A stretch of 41,800 bases of DNA from Escherichia phage vB_EcoD_Teewinot. A program made the position numbers and the translations under genes. Below, piece after piece: positions 3,600-30,965 of the stretch (its first letter is position 1; each line of letters starts with the position of its first letter). The notes under the pieces are model-generated. The model ran no database searches. It saw nothing but the letters and a program-made list of their open reading frames with translations, and had not been told where the DNA came from. The stretch is from sequence record NC_073053.1; one strand, given 5' to 3'.

Positions 3600-4686
3600 T
3601 CAATATTTGGCGGATCGAATGATTCGCCGTCACATCTTCACCCAGCGCCTGAGCAATGATCAGGCGCGGAGGGTGCTGGCTATGTGGGAGAAGTTCCGGC
3701 CCACTTTACTTGGTAAGCTGACCGAGTTACTTGATGGCAAAAAGTCCATGAGCAACAAGGCACTTACCACACTGTTAACGCAACTCGACAAGACCGTCAA
3801 AACGGAACTGCGCGCCGAGTTTAAAGTGCTGGCGGAGAGCCTTCAGGAGTTCGCCGACACCGAGGCTGATTATCTCGCGGACACACTAACGGCAGCGATC
3901 CAGCCCGCTGTCGCCGTACCCGCTGTTGAAGTAGTTGGCGTTGTTACCGGCGCGCAGATTGCAGCGACGGCAATGAAAAACCCGTTCCAGGGTAATACTA
4001 TGATGCAATGGCCTGATTCCCTTTCCGAGTGGACCAGGACGCAGATCGGTAATCAGGTGCGCGCTGGCTTCATCCAGGGCAAGCCAACGATGGAAATTAT
4101 CGCGGACGTGAGGCGCGCGCTAGGCGGTCGTAGTGCGCAAGCCATCTCAAGCGTTGTTAAGTCCGCAGTAAACCACTATGCGGCGACTGCCCGCGAACTA
4201 ATGGTAAAAGCAAATGACGATATTCTCGAAGGTCGCCAATGGTTATCTACATTGGACACACATACTTCTCCCATGTGCCAGCTACGCGATCGCCTGTTTT
4301 ATCCGGTTGATGTTACTCCCGACACCAAAGGAAAGCGCGGCGGGAAAGTGGTGGCGGGGTCACAGTATGGCGCTGGCCCAGGCAAGCTGCATTATTGCTG
4401 CCGGTCAACGGAGACGTGGAAAGTCAAAGGCATGGAAGATTGGCCCAGTGGTAAGCGTCCGGCCCTGAAGGCTGACGCGGGTCGGTTGCTGAGTGAGCAG
4501 GTCGACGCGCAGACTGATTTCTTCTCCTGGGTGCAGCGCCAGCCGCGCCACATCCTGGAGGAATTATATGGGGTGCAGCGCGCGGACCAGATTATGCGCG
4601 GCGTGAAAGTGCCGAAGATGTTCACTGATACCGGCGAACTAATGACTGTTGCACAGCTTAAAAACCGGGGGTTATGGCGTGATTAA
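3583..4686 (+). CDS. head morphogenesis / minor head protein
   Basis: 367 aa ORF overlapping the portal stop; position typical of SPP1 gp7/Mu F-like head morphogenesis proteins. Confidence 0.55.
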   Translation: MAKTVNQYLADRMIRRHIFTQRLSNDQARRVLAMWEKFRPTLLGKLTELLDGKKSMSNKALTTLLTQLDKTVKTELRAEFKVLAESLQEFADTEADYLADTLTAAIQPAVAVPAVEVVGVVTGAQIAATAMKNPFQGNTMMQWPDSLSEWTRTQIGNQVRAGFIQGKPTMEIIADVRRALGGRSAQAISSVVKSAVNHYAATARELMVKANDDILEGRQWLSTLDTHTSPMCQLRDRLFYPVDVTPDTKGKRGGKVVAGSQYGAGPGKLHYCCRSTETWKVKGMEDWPSGKRPALKADAGRLLSEQVDAQTDFFSWVQRQPRHILEELYGVQRADQIMRGVKVPKMFTDTGELMTVAQLKNRGLWRD

Positions 4687-5008
4687 ATATGCAGCGATCG
4701 GGGTGGTTATCGGCCTGGCGGTTGGCTTCTGGCTGGGTGATTCCTACCGCGCTGGCGTTGTGGCGAGCGCGGCGCAAGAAGCGCAAGCGAAAGCCCGACG
4801 GCAGCAAACTAAGGTTGTCGAGGGGGCAGTGCAGGCAGAACAGGCCCGCGACGTAGAATACCGGACTATCACGAAAGAGGTTGTAAAATATGTTACGCGT
4901 CCTAACCGTCCTGATTGTAGTTTTGATGCTGAGCGCGTGCGGATCAAGCAACGTGCCGTTGATGCCGCTAACGGAGTCGGCACTGCGACCGCCGTGCAAG
5001 TTCGATAA
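4679..5008 (+). CDS. i-spanin (Rz-like), putative
   Basis: N-terminal TM helix (IKYAAIGVVIGLAVGFWLG) followed by A/Q/E/K/R-rich helical region. GTG 4679 preceded by GGGGGT; the track gives a TTG start at 4649. A lipoprotein ORF is embedded in the +1 frame over its 3' end. Confidence 0.5.
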   Translation: MIKYAAIGVVIGLAVGFWLGDSYRAGVVASAAQEAQAKARRQQTKVVEGAVQAEQARDVEYRTITKEVVKYVTRPNRPDCSFDAERVRIKQRAVDAANGVGTATAVQVR

Positions 5009-25401: not shown

Positions 25402-25725
25402 TTACGCATAAAAGTTTGGGTCGCGTGCAACGTCTACCAGGTAAAGGTTGCTTATGCGGTTGCCGTAGTGCCCTGGAGTGCGCTGGCGGCACACAACGGC
25501 GAAGCCTGGAGGGATTGTATTGCCCGTCTCAATAATCCATGCCACGCGTGCGCCAGACAGCGTCTTGCCGTTGCATTCGATGCGTGTCCCACCATCGGCA
25601 GTATTGATGTTGCCAATCTTGCATCCGGTGGACTTCAGACGGATGACTCCGGTTTTGCTGTCGTAGGTGAATAGCTGGTTAGTCATTGCGACCGAAAAAT
25701 CGATTGGTTCGTATGTAGCGTTCAT
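25402..25725 (-). CDS. HNH_3-like protein with degenerate catalytic motif
   Basis: 107 aa; ARVAWIIETGNTIPPGFAVVCRQRTPGHYGNRISNLYLV aligns by eye to the HRLVWE...G.IP.G..IDHINGD..DNR..NL pattern of HNH_3 homing endonucleases, but the DH of IDH is replaced by VC. Confidence 0.45.
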   Translation of the reverse strand: MNATYEPIDFSVAMTNQLFTYDSKTGVIRLKSTGCKIGNINTADGGTRIECNGKTLSGARVAWIIETGNTIPPGFAVVCRQRTPGHYGNRISNLYLVDVARDPNFYA

Positions 25726-25907
25726 TTTAAATTTTCCTCGTTAACCGCTATCGCGAAGCCGCGCGGAGTGAGCGACCGGATTAATTTTGTGCGGGCTGAT
25801 TTACCACCGAGGCGACTATACTGTTTCGAGTACCCTTTTTCAACGAAAACAGGTTTCTTCTCTGGCATACGGAAGCCGCTGCCGTCAAACAATGGCCAGA
25901 TTATCAT
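25722..25907 (-). CDS. hypothetical protein
   Basis: 61 aa ORF tightly packed between helicase and HNH-like gene with overlapping start/stop codons. Confidence 0.35.
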   Translation of the reverse strand: MIIWPLFDGSGFRMPEKKPVFVEKGYSKQYSRLGGKSARTKLIRSLTPRGFAIAVNEENLK

Positions 25908-27328: not shown

Positions 27329-27514
27329 ATCTTTATTCCGCCTTTTTCCAGACTTCTGTTTCACTGTTCCAGTTCCTTTTTGTGGCGTCGTAGTTGGTGG
27401 CGTGTCCGATGTGCACACCGGTAGCCCGGTTTACATTCGCCCAGCTTGGTGAGTCGGTAGTGTTCTTTCATCGTCATGTCTCCCAAAAATGGCGGGACAA
27501 GCCCGCCGTATTAA

Positions 27515-27690
27515 TTATTTTTGTTCTGCACGGTAGCGGCGCTGCCGTTCGCGCTCTTTCTTATTGCGGCACGATTTGCACTCTGCCCGATACCCGTCTG
27601 GACTGCGCGCAGTCTTACCGGTGTATTTGTGGAACTGGGATAGCGGCTTTACACAGCCGCAATTACTACAACGTTTTTCTTCAATCATCT
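27515..27690 (-). CDS. small zinc-ribbon protein
   Basis: 58 aa from ATG 27690 (GAGGA RBS): CSNCGCVKPL...ECKSCRNKKERERQRRYR; the same module occurs twice in the N-terminus of the HNH protein at 28004-28606. Confidence 0.4.
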
Positions 27691-27728
27691 CTAAAATCCT
27701 CGATATGGCTAACCGGCACACTATACCG

Positions 27729-28007
27729 CTATGCGACCAATTCAGCAACCAATAAATCGCAGTCGGCTATGTTGTCGATAACGCGAACGTCCGCACCGCG
27801 GCGGGCCATTCGATCATGTTCACGTACTTGGTGCGGCTTCGGTTTTCCTCCGGGGCGCTTCACTTCGACGAACACTATTTTGCCGTTGATGATAATAATC
27901 AGGTCGGGAGCACCTGCGCGCCCCTCCCATGCCAGTTTTCTGCAGAATCCGCCGACCTCTTTAACCCGTTTCATAAGGTGACGCTGCACCTTGCCTTCTG
28001 GTGTCAT
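27729..28007 (-). CDS. VRR-NUC domain nuclease
   Basis: 92 aa from ATG 28007; DLIIIINGKIVFVEVKRPGGKPKPHQ is the characteristic D...E.K core with downstream Q; start overlaps the HNH stop (ATGA). Confidence 0.6.
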   Translation of the reverse strand: MTPEGKVQRHLMKRVKEVGGFCRKLAWEGRAGAPDLIIIINGKIVFVEVKRPGGKPKPHQVREHDRMARRGADVRVIDNIADCDLLVAELVA

Positions 28008-28606
28008 TGTCGGCTTTTCCTTACGGCAGCGATGGCAGGTCCGATAAACTTCTTCATTTCGTCCGGGGTAAACCGGTCTCCGCGGGCTATGTTGCACTCT
28101 ACGCAGCACGGCACGCAGTTATCTTTCGTATGGCCTACTGCGTTGTCGAGTCGGTCCGCGCCATTGTCGCCGGTGAATCCGCAGTATGCGCATGGTTGAG
28201 AAGTAAGGCGTAGCACGTCCTCGGTGGTTAGGTCGGTGTTTAACCCCTTCCTTTCGTCCGCCTTACGGTACTGAAAGAGCTTATAGTAAGCTCGGATCTC
28301 TGGTGTCCGGCGGTTGTACTCACGGCGGGACTTATTAGCGCACGACCGGCATTCTTTACGAATGTGTGACTGGCTTGCCAGGTTTCCGGGCCGGAAGTTT
28401 TCCGGCGTAAGCGGCTTACGTTCCCCGCACTGACGGCACGTTACGATCTCCCCGGTATACTCTCGCCATACTTCGCGCGGCGGCGCTCCTCTTTCCTTAT
28501 CTCGTCTCTCTTTCTTATACGCCGCCATGCATTTGGCGCACCACGACTGACCCTTGTTGAAAGCGGACTCATCTTTATCCGTATTACAACGCCCACAATG
28601 TTTCAT
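28004..28606 (-). CDS. HNH endonuclease with two N-terminal zinc-ribbon modules
   Basis: 200 aa from ATG 28606 (GGGGGGT RBS); C-terminal CAYCG...GHTKDNCVPCCVECNIARGD HNH motif; inserted between the polymerase and VRR-NUC genes. Confidence 0.65.
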   Translation of the reverse strand: MKHCGRCNTDKDESAFNKGQSWCAKCMAAYKKERRDKERGAPPREVWREYTGEIVTCRQCGERKPLTPENFRPGNLASQSHIRKECRSCANKSRREYNRRTPEIRAYYKLFQYRKADERKGLNTDLTTEDVLRLTSQPCAYCGFTGDNGADRLDNAVGHTKDNCVPCCVECNIARGDRFTPDEMKKFIGPAIAAVRKSRQ

Positions 28607-28673
28607 ATACCCCCCCGAAAAATAAAACGCCAGACAATATTGCCCGACGTTTCCGCTAAAAGCAACATTTCCG

Positions 28674-30965
28674 CTACTTGCGGTAGCGATACATACAATC
28701 ACCTTCTGCGGCAAGTGGGAAGCCTTTCGCCCAAATAGGCAGGTCGCACATCAGCGCGCAAAGCTCCTCTGTCGTGTAGTCGTCGGTGTCCGGCACTTCT
28801 GTGATCAATTCATCATGCACCGATAGAACGATTTCATATCCGGCGGCTTCAACGCCAGGCATGGACCACGCGAGAATATCGCGGCACAACGCCTGTACGA
28901 TGTTCTCCGTCAGTTTGCCGCCGTAGGTATACTGGAAGCCCCACTGGCGCGTCGTCTGATTCTCGCCCTGATATTTAATGCGTGTGCTGGTGCGCTTCTT
29001 GCCGGTGTCCTCGTCGATCTCGGTCGTGACCGACAGCGCGATGCCCGGGTAGCTCATGATGCGCCCGGACGGCAACTCAATTTTCAACCACCACCCCGCG
29101 GCGTTCGGATCGTCGCGCTCCTCGTCGAAGGTTGGGTCGTGCTTCGCCTTCGTGCGCACAATCTTGAGCGCTTTCCTACCGTCCGGGCGAACGTTAGCGC
29201 CAGCCCAGTATGCTTTGCCCGGATTGCGGATTGCACACAACACCGCGTCCTCAAGCTCGGCCCAAAAGGCGACCGTCTTCGGGTGAGCCTCGCGCCACAT
29301 GCGTTTGATTGCGTCACAAGTCAGCCATACGTTTTTCGGAAGTATGTATGTTGGGCGCTCGTCTTTCTTGCCTGGCTTCGGTGGGCGTTTCGCTTCGTTA
29401 ATACGAGCGTACTCATAACCGCGTTTAGCTGCCGCCCAAATGTGATCGGGGAATGTACCCTTCATCACGTCCGCCATAGCGTAAAGGTCGAGGCCCAGGT
29501 TTTTAGCGAACTGCAAGAACGCCGCGACGCCGCCACCATAGCCCAGTCCCAATTCACACGCCTTACCGATCTGGCGCAAGTCTTTGCGGTTGGCTTTAAT
29601 GTAGTCCGGGTCCAGGCCGAACATCTTACCGGCAGTCTCACAATAGATATCGCGACCGGCCCTAAACACCATTAGCGCGGTTTTCTCGCCCGCGATCCAG
29701 GCAAGTCCACGCCCTTCCACGTTGGAGTAGTCCGCTACGACAAACTTCTTGCCCTTAGCCGGGATAATGCACCCGCGAACGGTAGAGGCTGTTAGCTTAG
29801 ATATGTCATACGCCCAGTGCGCGGTCCCGCGTAACAGGGAATTGATGCCGTTGGTGAGCATGTGCGACCGGACCCAAAACGAGACGTCGCTTTCACCCTC
29901 GCGGCGTTTAATCTTCCCTTCGTGGTCGTCGCTGTACTCGCCACGTGCCAGGTTTTGAGGCTGGAAGCCTTTACCCGCCCAGCGCAGCGTGCGCTTTGCG
30001 CCACCATACTGAAGACACCCACGGCGGCGACCATCTGCGGATAAGCCGTTAACTAGCGGATTGTACTTAGTCGATGCCGTTGATGACGCACCGAGGCGCA
30101 TTTCGATAAGCGCTTTGCCTTCGTCGGGGAAGTCCGGGTCTTCAAGCAGGTCGTTAAGTGTGGATTTCTGCGCGTTGTGGATTGTGAACGCCGGGGCGAT
30201 ATCACGCAGGATTGGCAGGAAGTCATTGCCTGTCAGTTTACCACCAAATCGCTCCCAGGCTTCCTCCTTCAATTCTTCCTTATGCGCCTGCACCGCTTTG
30301 ATCGCGGCGTTCGCCAGGTCAACGTCCACATAGAAGCCGCGGTCGTTGATCAACTGGTCGATAAGCAGGATTTCATCTTCCTTCGGAGTATTACCCCAGT
30401 CCGGTATGCGCCAGTAGACCTCACGCATCGCGATAATATCCAGCGCGGCATATCGCAAAAATTTGGCCCATTCTTCAGGGTGAGTCTCGCGAGTGTAGCG
30501 GCGGATTTTGTAAGTCTTAGGGGTTGGCTTACAGAAGCGTTTGATCAGCGCCTTGCCAGCCTTATCCTTCGCGTGTTCTGCGTCAACGCCCAGCACCTGG
30601 CATTGCATGTCGAGACTACCGGGCAGCGCGTGGCGAAAGGCCATAATCATGGTGTCTTCGATCTGGCTTACCGGCAGGTCAATACCCCACTTCTCGCGAA
30701 TAACCAGGCGGTCAAACAGGAGGCCGTTAGCCATCACTATTTTTGCTTTCTTGCGGGAAACATGGCGGAGCGCCTTGCGCAGTTCACGCGGCATTGTGGG
30801 GGATTCAGTGCAATCCCATGTCTGCACGCGGCCCTCGTCGATGGCGTATGTGCAAATCATAATCTCGGTGGTTGGGTGCTCTGCGTAGGCGTACGCCCCA
30901 ACTTTCTTCAGGTCCACCCCGCTAAATGTCTCGGTGTCGAGAAACAGACGTTCGAAGTCTTTCAT
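28674..30965 (-). CDS. DNA polymerase, family A, with 3'-5' exonuclease domain
   Basis: 763 aa; N-terminal LFLDTETFSG (exo motif I-like), C-terminal SVHDELITEV (motif C) and K...YG region; GAGGATAAAG RBS. Confidence 0.85.
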   Translation of the reverse strand: MKDFERLFLDTETFSGVDLKKVGAYAYAEHPTTEIMICTYAIDEGRVQTWDCTESPTMPRELRKALRHVSRKKAKIVMANGLLFDRLVIREKWGIDLPVSQIEDTMIMAFRHALPGSLDMQCQVLGVDAEHAKDKAGKALIKRFCKPTPKTYKIRRYTRETHPEEWAKFLRYAALDIIAMREVYWRIPDWGNTPKEDEILLIDQLINDRGFYVDVDLANAAIKAVQAHKEELKEEAWERFGGKLTGNDFLPILRDIAPAFTIHNAQKSTLNDLLEDPDFPDEGKALIEMRLGASSTASTKYNPLVNGLSADGRRRGCLQYGGAKRTLRWAGKGFQPQNLARGEYSDDHEGKIKRREGESDVSFWVRSHMLTNGINSLLRGTAHWAYDISKLTASTVRGCIIPAKGKKFVVADYSNVEGRGLAWIAGEKTALMVFRAGRDIYCETAGKMFGLDPDYIKANRKDLRQIGKACELGLGYGGGVAAFLQFAKNLGLDLYAMADVMKGTFPDHIWAAAKRGYEYARINEAKRPPKPGKKDERPTYILPKNVWLTCDAIKRMWREAHPKTVAFWAELEDAVLCAIRNPGKAYWAGANVRPDGRKALKIVRTKAKHDPTFDEERDDPNAAGWWLKIELPSGRIMSYPGIALSVTTEIDEDTGKKRTSTRIKYQGENQTTRQWGFQYTYGGKLTENIVQALCRDILAWSMPGVEAAGYEIVLSVHDELITEVPDTDDYTTEELCALMCDLPIWAKGFPLAAEGDCMYRYRK

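Follow-up and report, generated by a model that had tools for sequence, protein, structure and literature searches.

A PacI-like endonuclease gene as an optional and probably homing cassette at the polA/VRR-NUC junction of Dhillonvirus coliphages

The window analyzed here is a stretch of 41,800 nucleotides (nt) from Escherichia phage vB_EcoD_Teewinot (sequence record NC_073053.1), to which all coordinates refer unless another locus is named. Its replication module contains a gene for a nuclease of 200 amino acids (aa) at 28004-28606, with the ATG at 28606; this gene and the features described next are all on the minus strand. The nuclease gene is preceded by polA, encoding a family A DNA polymerase (28674-30965; 763 aa, uninterrupted, Pfam DNA_pol_A E 3.6e-16, and annotated as DNA polymerase in relatives), and its downstream neighbor encodes a VRR-NUC nuclease, a putative Holliday-junction resolvase (27729-28007; 92 aa). 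A zinc-ribbon open reading frame (ORF) follows at 27515-27688 (57 aa from its ATG), and directly 3' of it lies an intrinsic terminator (27491-27507; GGCGGGCTTGTCCCGCC and then a T-run), which is annotated as a terminator in phage PTXU06. The nuclease gene is an optional occupant of the polA/VRR-NUC junction, and the sequence comparisons described below suggest that it is a free-standing homing endonuclease gene from the PacI-like branch of the His-Me finger (HNH) superfamily, a reading to which we assign a probability of roughly 0.6.

The polA/VRR-NUC junction and its alleles

The region is 93-97% identical to that of Dhillonvirus coliphages such as Sodalis phage SO-1, SM_A8 and SECphi18, and the SO-1 counterparts of the nuclease, VRR-NUC and zinc-ribbon genes are gp37, gp36 and gp35, respectively. 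The VRR-NUC protein scored 27.5 bits against Pfam VRR_NUC PF08774 (gathering cut-off 23.8) and also matched PHROG 93 and 5702; its ratio of nonsynonymous to synonymous change (dN/dS) was 0.118 in 23 genomes.

Between the polA stop and the nuclease ATG lies a spacer of 67 nt (28607-28673, minus) that is without counterpart in empty-site alleles. It forms a terminator-like hairpin at 28624-28653, with a 14-pair consensus stem of -19.3 kcal/mol and a U-run after it, in which three variable stem positions stay paired through one-sided changes and zero compensatory double changes were seen. The spacer also holds a 19-nt direct duplication, missing in phages BF9 and JLBYU60, and a G-rich Shine-Dalgarno sequence stands upstream of the nuclease ATG; a sigma-70 promoter scan found none for the cassette. 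The downstream border of the cassette is exactly the VRR-NUC ATG. The cassette consists of a recoded polA terminus, the terminator-like hairpin, the Shine-Dalgarno sequence and the ORF, and the zinc-ribbon ORF lies outside it.

An earlier note on this DNA, made from the letters alone, had described the nuclease gene as an insertion into a module where polA and the VRR-NUC gene are otherwise adjacent, and had named its presence at this position in all relatives, with no empty-site variants, as the observation that would count against this view. Comparison with relatives lacking the gene defined the site and established an insertion polymorphism, since most relatives are without the gene. It is carried by 26 of 156 Dhillonvirus records (about 17%), corresponding to some 17 distinct carrier phages, and is missing from about 130 of the 156.

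Six alleles were distinguished, with 23 genomes compared at sequence level. The empty allele, in which the polA stop and the VRR-NUC start overlap by 1 nt (TAATG), occurs in EP23, EE09, jat, SD276 and bov11C2. Another allele carries an unrelated 63-aa gene, ORF63 (PHROG 1222), which likewise ends in ATGA (PaulFeyerabend, UDS3lw, SSL-2009a, YD-2008.s), and Oekolampad retains a remnant of ORF63 with an internal deletion. The nuclease cassette itself occurs with or without the 19-nt duplication in its spacer. In a fifth allele, the first ~24 nt of the cassette spacer survive within a spacer of 27 to 31 nt, followed by VRR-NUC (PTXU06, PS2) or by ORF63 (SM_W22). In phage bob, finally, nuclease residues 1-154 are joined at a 7-nt microhomology to the C-terminus of ORF63, and the catalytic core is gone. 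The alternative occupants and the recombinants in other Dhillonviruses were located at 1745-1936 of loci L004 and L006, 1785-1976 of L007, 3245-3436 of L019, 3245-3850 of L012, and at the junctions of L056 and L057. No prior description of this Dhillonvirus polymorphism was found in a literature search.

The nuclease and VRR-NUC genes overlap by ATGA, seen as TCAT on the plus strand at 28004-28007. This overlap, reported in the earlier note, is genuine, but it does not serve as the sign of a homing gene for which it had been taken, because ORF63 ends in the same way and the empty allele has TAATG; the overlap reflects the translational coupling of the operon and is not diagnostic of a homing gene.

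The polymorphism is confined to one fixed site, outside any intron or intein. Carriers and non-carriers share the intact zinc-ribbon gene and otherwise identical flanks, and Oekolampad, which lacks the cassette, has a VRR-NUC gene 100% identical to the one in the window. Carriers were no more alike among themselves than they were to non-carriers in four of five flank segments (permutation p 0.20-0.44), and a marginal excess of similarity was seen in the last 300 nt of polA only (p 0.046). The distribution of the gene is incongruent with the phylogeny of its flanks, in phages that recombine heavily anyway.

The one part of the flanks that follows the gene is the very end of polA. The last 27 nt (28674-28700, minus) have the sequence GAT TGT ATG TAT CGC TAC CGC AAG TAG, termed type C, which always accompanies the cassette, whereas the type I end reads GAC ATT ATG TAC AGG TAC AGG AAG TAA and differs at 9 nt, with one amino acid changed (Cys/Ile). 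Across the entire collection, type C was found in 26 of 26 carrier records and type I in about 120 other records. Ten gene-free records have type C or near-type C ends, five of which retain the spacer footprint, and the two YD-2008.s records among the ten have a C/I hybrid. Pattern scans of IMG/VR found no type I end joined to the cassette; these junction scans added just a handful of Dhillonvirus contigs, and their 16-base patterns gave mostly chance matches, which were filtered by context.

Association with gene presence was tested at 733 variable sites in ~1.2 kb of polA and 1.4 kb downstream in 21 genomes. Nine of these sites were associated at p < 0.005, all of them in the last 25 nt of polA, and no gene-associated site was found downstream of the VRR-NUC ATG. 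Additionally, the last 27 nt of polA were the most divergent 27-nt window within the ~2.6 kb of flanks in five of six carrier/non-carrier pairs, with 9-10 differences, where other windows had at most 5-8 and on average 1-2.

The nuclease and its place in the His-Me finger superfamily

The nuclease protein gave no match in scans of Pfam (E <= 0.1) or NCBIfam. PHROG 1035, which bears the label 'endonuclease VII', matched it end to end (E 1.3e-42). A phmmer search of the PDB with the single nuclease sequence returned marginal matches only, with PacI at E 4.3, so that a profile search was needed to reach PacI. With a profile of 63 family members, the restriction endonuclease PacI (3ldy) was matched over its residues 3-137 (E 9.6e-14), a span that includes the N-terminal CxxC...CxxC motif. 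An exhaustive HMMER search identified relatives in 16,483 representative clusters at E <= 0.001 (1,792 at E <= 1e-10), which makes the nuclease family very large; a word-indexed protein search had recovered just 10 nuclease relatives, and 3 for the small ORF.

Two CxxC...CxxC modules, each followed by a basic helix, are present in the N-terminus, in agreement with the earlier note. Module 1 (28472-28606, minus; aa 1-45) comprises C4, C7, C23 and C26 with the basic helix at 24-39, and is missing from many family members. Module 2 (28292-28459, minus; aa 50-105) comprises C57, C60, C86 and C89 with the basic helix at 87-98; its cysteines are kept in 59-62 of the 63 family members and it aligned to PacI residues 3-30, which identifies it at the sequence level as the counterpart of the N-terminal zinc motif of PacI.

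The catalytic ββα-Me core (28079-28192, minus; aa 139-176) shows the pattern DRLDN...GH...N...CxxCN and contains a Cys4 site (C139/C142/C168/C171), D151-R152, H159, N163 and N172. Structure prediction placed strands at 149-152 and 164-167 and a helix at 169-175, which corresponds to the ββα-metal fold of the His-Me finger superfamily. C139, Y141, C142, D151, N163, C168, C171 and N172 are invariant in 63 of 63 family members, so that the metal-binding Asp/Asn and the structural Asn expected of the superfamily are represented by D151, N163 and N172. D151 and N172 align with D92 and N113 of PacI, whose metal ligands are an Asp and an Asn (PMC4081073).

The general-base His at the end of β1 is replaced by R152, with Arg in 62 of 63 members and at R93 of PacI. 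Owing to this Arg and to the lack of a Pfam HNH match, membership in the superfamily holds solely via the PacI branch. The full-chain homology, with the N-terminal zinc motif and the CxYC...CxxCN signature, is that of this branch. In PacI the general base is an omega-loop tyrosine instead of a His (PMC5714182, PMC4081073); in the profile alignment, from which our numbering is taken, H159 of the nuclease aligns with Y100 of PacI. We take Y100 to be the catalytic tyrosine because the stretch from β1 to the structural Asn contains no other Tyr and because published work assigns the catalytic Tyr to the omega loop (PMC5714182). Across the family, position 159 is His in 52 and Tyr in 11 of the 63 members, and never another residue.

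PacI (PDB 3ldy/3m7k; group 20 in PMC5714182) thus resembles the nuclease in its N-terminal Cys4 motif, its helical linker, a ββα-Me core with a second Cys4 (CxYC...CxxCN), a β1 strand that ends in Asp-Arg and not in Asp-His, and the same Asp and Asn ligands. The two differ in the extra zinc module (aa 1-45) of the nuclease, in His159 as opposed to the Tyr of PacI, and in their setting, the nuclease being an optional phage cassette and PacI a bacterial restriction gene. Judged by its sequence, the nuclease is homologous to PacI over the full length and carries one additional zinc-ribbon module at its N-terminus; its predicted Cys4 zinc site and Asp/Asn metal ligands are intact. The label 'HNH' given in the earlier note is therefore right at the level of the superfamily, on the evidence of PHROG 1035, the PacI homology and the structure prediction and comparisons, but it does not hold in the sense of a canonical HNH enzyme.

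An identity as endonuclease VII was considered and rejected, as no Pfam match was obtained at E <= 0.1 and the nearest solved structure is PacI and not endonuclease VII. The catalytic motif of the Endonuclease_7 family contains a histidine. The 'endonuclease VII' label of PHROG 1035 and GenBank looks like an annotation carry-over.

The ten intact Dhillonvirus copies of the nuclease gene had a dN/dS of 0.115 at a synonymous diversity (pS) of 0.16. These values indicate that the gene is functional and under purifying selection, and that it is not a recent arrival.

The zinc-ribbon gene and other features of the neighborhood

The earlier note had also pointed to a stand-alone copy of the zinc-ribbon module of the nuclease at 27515-27690 and had suggested that it encodes either a zinc-ribbon DNA-binding protein or the remnant of another endonuclease. 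The ORF starts at 27688, 2 nt from the position given there, and encodes one Cys4 module (C7/C10/C37/C40) with a basic C-terminal helix. In a BLASTP comparison, 45 aa of it aligned with nuclease module 2 (44% identity, E 3e-6). A module 2 profile made from 60 distant family members, with this phage left out, scored the small ORF at 44.8 bits, nuclease module 2 at 49.1 and module 1 at 16.3, compared to 7.8 for the best of 200 shuffles. The small ORF also matched PHROG 5558 (E 6.5e-17) and positions 62-109 of PHROG 1035 (E 6.5e-10). On these sequence scores, the small ORF is a member of the same zinc-ribbon domain family and not a copy of the nuclease's own module.

An AlphaFold2 (AF2) model of the small protein shows two beta-hairpin zinc knuckles and a long basic helix at 38-56 (predicted local distance difference test, pLDDT, 76.5). 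A Foldseek search with this model and a profile search of the PDB gave no significant match, and the fold is for this reason described as a zinc knuckle or ribbon plus helix only. In Pfam only DUF6510 was hit, at E 0.062 and below the cut-off, and in NCBIfam only HVO_0649, with 17 bits against a cut-off of 70.

In the 23 genomes the gene is intact in every case and exactly 57 aa long, with a dN/dS of 0.041 at a pS of 0.26. Matches of at least 90% identity were found by tblastn in 156 phage records, with or without the nuclease, which equals the number of records for the Dhillonvirus region. A homologue with 65% identity lies directly 3' of polA in a distant 46-kb phage contig that has no VRR-NUC or PacI-like gene there. 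In this distant relative (locus L059), HNH_3-family genes at 1196-1717 and 4270-4755 flank polA and the zinc-ribbon homologue, an arrangement that is a possible 'HEG island' (HEG, homing endonuclease gene) by analogy with PMC10448857.

These observations bear on the idea that the small ORF is what is left of a second, degraded endonuclease gene or, alternatively, a 'Lar-like restriction alleviation' protein, both of which we consider quite unlikely. The zinc-ribbon family is typically fused to PacI-like and other phage nucleases, stand-alone DNA-binding domains from homing endonucleases are known (e.g., CapR, PMC10448857), and PHROG 5558 bears a Lar-like label, all of which would agree with one or the other origin. 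A gene of constant length that is intact, under strong constraint and present at high identity in 156 records regardless of the nuclease, with a homologue after polA in a distant lineage, is nonetheless not a recent remnant, and no vestige of a nuclease domain follows its stop, since the terminator stands 8 nt after it. The suggestion of a remnant was thus not sustained, whereas that of a zinc-ribbon protein was. As for Lar, the Pfam search at E <= 0.1 matched no Lar model and nothing else save the weak DUF6510, and the name comes solely from PHROG 5558; curated models thus lend it no support. GenBank names for homologues of the small ORF include Lar-like, KilA anti-repressor, HNH endonuclease and 'meiotic chromosome segregation protein', none of which is backed by Pfam or NCBIfam. 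The small ORF is an independent, selectively maintained gene, near-universal in the genus, from the domain family with which phage nucleases bind DNA, and it is probably a DNA-binding accessory of the replication module; an ancient domestication is conceivable.

Several further features were noted around the locus. The closest match of the window is record MG065648.1, 'Campylobacter phage A144', in which the nuclease protein and the polA terminus are both 100% identical. This is an unannotated 35-kb record that is clearly a Dhillonvirus coliphage, and its Campylobacter host label consequently looks wrong; further 'Campylobacter phage' records (A143, A113 and others) likewise gave coliphage-like matches in the nuclease search. 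Downstream, a 61-aa ORF at 25722-25907 (minus) is a C-terminal fragment of a Dcm-like C5 cytosine methyltransferase (PHROG 757, positions 167-218 of 247). SO-1, Oekolampad and others have the complete gene (696-711 nt), so that the phage of the window has lost most of dcm; the same 186-nt remnant is found in Shigella phage 1b. The gp34 homologue (27361-27477, minus) is disrupted as well, with ~80 nt missing relative to SO-1 (225 nt) and a 38-aa ORF left, which matches PHROG 9291 at the first 19 positions only.

A second nuclease-like gene at 25402-25725 (minus; 107 aa) is the homologue of SO-1 gp31 and matches PHROG 99 'HNH endonuclease' (E 3.8e-16) without a Pfam match. It is annotated as a putative homing endonuclease in relatives and, unlike the PacI-like gene, is annotated in all fetched Dhillonvirus loci reaching its position. 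The polA gene of SO-1 (locus L001, 4454-7642) is interrupted by a group I intron that itself carries an HNH gene, and that of Pubbukkers is annotated with an intein, which makes the polymerase gene a repeated target of mobile elements in Dhillonvirus.

Homing and competing explanations

Taken together, the single fixed site, the patchy presence, the breakpoints at the cassette edges, the recoded border block, the decay products and the location of relatives between essential genes make up the pattern of a homing gene. The free-standing homing endonuclease proposed in the earlier note fits the observed distribution of 26 of 156 records at one site. Relatives were found in comparable settings: in phage Bas72, whose record is not assigned to Dhillonvirus, a nuclease homologue with 49% identity lies directly 3' of polA with a hairpin and T-run before it, and more distant homologues lie just upstream of the portal gene (Murrayvirus sortsyn) or between minor tail genes (Rogunavirinae MM01). 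Two tiny ORFs separate the homologue from VRR-NUC in Bas72 (locus L003, 4814-4912), one of which encodes 32 aa with a CxxC...C motif (MKIYWFYEEDCRICPRCGTEHTKREGCIDEYA) and is possibly another miniature zinc-binding protein.

If the gene is a homing gene, the enzyme would cut or nick cassette-free genomes at or next to the polA/VRR-NUC junction during mixed infection, with the type I polA terminus as the candidate cleavage site and the zinc-ribbon modules supplying DNA binding. Repair by recombination off a carrier genome would then transfer the cassette along with the final ~25 nt of polA, and the nine mostly synonymous changes at the end of polA would shield carriers from self-cleavage. The PacI-like branch is marked by homodimers that recognize and cut short palindromes. 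The type I end contains TGTAC-AG-GTACA, which is lacking in type C; such a repeat is not rare by chance, and its symmetry, which a PacI-like dimer might use, is a weak lead.

Similar arrangements have been described in other phages. PacI-like HNH endonucleases of Skunavirus (PMC12724721) are likewise variably present at one fixed location and regarded as presumptive homing endonucleases, and tblastn showed the Skunavirus and Dhillonvirus families to be about 31% identical over the core; the Skunavirus enzymes differ in belonging to another phage group and inserting in the morphogenesis module, and a recoded flanking block is unreported for them. The mobE gene of T4-like phages (PMC2790892) and F-CphI (PMC6083498) are also intron-less nuclease genes that lie between conserved genes, are patchily distributed, and are mobilized when the allele without the gene is cleaved, flanking DNA being co-converted. 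For these enzymes, which have canonical HNH or Endo VII motifs, both cleavage and homing have been demonstrated, whereas the enzyme studied here is PacI-like with a predicted activity. Zinc-ribbon HNH enzymes encoded beside cos or terminase genes (PMC3592412) similarly combine an HNH core, which has its own [CxxC]2, with one or two zinc-ribbon sites, but they are conserved, packaging-associated and canonical His-Asn-His enzymes, and the present gene is optional, located in the replication module and without the β1 His. CapR and the T5orf172 homing endonucleases (PMC10448857) offer a parallel for tandem zinc-finger modules and for a stand-alone module protein with its own function, although they represent another zinc-finger family (no Pfam DUF723 or DUF4397 match was obtained here) and another nuclease class, and the role of the 57-aa protein is only predicted.

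Several observations weigh against homing. The single PacI-like enzyme tested in Skunavirus gave no marker exclusion (PMC12724721), and for the present nuclease and its close relatives cleavage, a target site and biased inheritance are predictions. The record counts include RefSeq/GenBank duplicates and near-identical isolates. The substantial synonymous diversity among the nuclease copies (pS 0.16) indicates an old resident and not a recent sweep. Type C ends occur without the gene in EP23, PTXU06, Zar3M, PS2 and SM_W22, and YD-2008.s is a C/I hybrid. Additionally, background linkage between single-nucleotide polymorphisms decays within about 25-50 nt everywhere in these mosaic phages, so that the tight link to the polA end could be due to plain proximity instead of target-site immunity. 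After this background was measured, the sharp drop in association 25 nt into polA was downgraded from strong evidence of a hotspot or immunity block to suggestive evidence. The 9-nt recoded block is perfectly linked to the gene, yet background linkage under 25 nt is comparably high; what is still unusual at this border is the density of changes and the near-zero linkage on the VRR-NUC side. The recoded polA end is therefore best described as a candidate target-immunity or co-converted block, for which the sequence evidence is suggestive.

The same data were weighed against other roles for the nuclease. An accessory PacI-type 'restriction' nuclease that serves the phage and is no selfish element, directed against competing phages, host DNA or host defence and spread by ordinary recombination and selection, is a rather unlikely explanation. 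PacI itself is a restriction enzyme, and a role as viral restrictases has been suggested for its homologues in viruses (PMC5714182); the gene is under purifying selection (dN/dS 0.115) and is built into the translational coupling of the operon, and the background recombination is high enough to shuffle any cassette. Such a role is harder to reconcile with a gene present in only about 17% of records, always at one site where it alternates with other occupants, with a recoded block exactly at the cassette border, with a homologue at the corresponding site next to polA in a different phage group and with others between essential genes. The restriction role and homing overlap to some extent, as marker exclusion is part of homing.

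We give very little credence to a housekeeping function in replication, recombination or packaging, whether together with VRR-NUC or in the manner of the cos/terminase-associated HNH enzymes of HK97-like phages, because the viable isolates behind ~130 of the 156 related records do without the gene, which is moreover away from the terminase gene and of a different, PacI-like branch. The replication-module location and the coupling to VRR-NUC would suit this function, and zinc-ribbon HNH enzymes beside terminase genes are known packaging factors (PMC3592412). It is equally improbable that the protein is a catalytically dead DNA-binding protein, that is, a domesticated or decaying nuclease. The replacement of the first His of the HNH motif (R152), the missing Pfam HNH match and the phage bob chimera without a catalytic core could be read in this way; PacI, however, has the same substitution and is active, relying on a residue of the omega loop (PMC5714182, PMC4081073), and in the present family position 159 is only His or Tyr, D151, N163, N172 and the Cys4 site are invariant, and the gene is under purifying selection.

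The homing explanation may be extended to a joint reading with three linked parts, which as a whole we put forward only tentatively. The recoded 27 nt would be an immunity determinant of the endonuclease, which would cut the type I terminus or junction and bring its own resistant gene end; most members of the PacI branch, a family of >16,000 clusters, would use an omega-loop His as the general base, with the Tyr of PacI as the exception; and the 57-aa protein would be an anciently domesticated DNA-binding module of a homing endonuclease that is now part of the replication module.

Free-standing HNH homing genes are common in phages, and the present locus is an ordinary but well-resolved case that leaves current understanding unchanged. 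New here are the placement of the nuclease in the PacI branch, the His aligned with the Tyr of PacI, and a precisely mapped site with several alleles and a candidate immunity block. In addition, the small gene is no longer taken for a remnant, and several misleading annotations of it (Lar-like, KilA, HNH) are corrected. A very large phage protein family that no Pfam model matches, until now labelled 'endonuclease VII' or 'hypothetical', is placed in the PacI branch, and an alternation of His and Tyr is suggested at its catalytic omega-loop position. Since the BASEL and Sorek-laboratory collections already contain phages with and without the cassette (e.g., SECphi18 versus SECphi4 or Oekolampad), the junction may offer a clean system for homing in well-sampled small coliphages, with specific predictions on the DNA that would be cut and on the residues that would matter.

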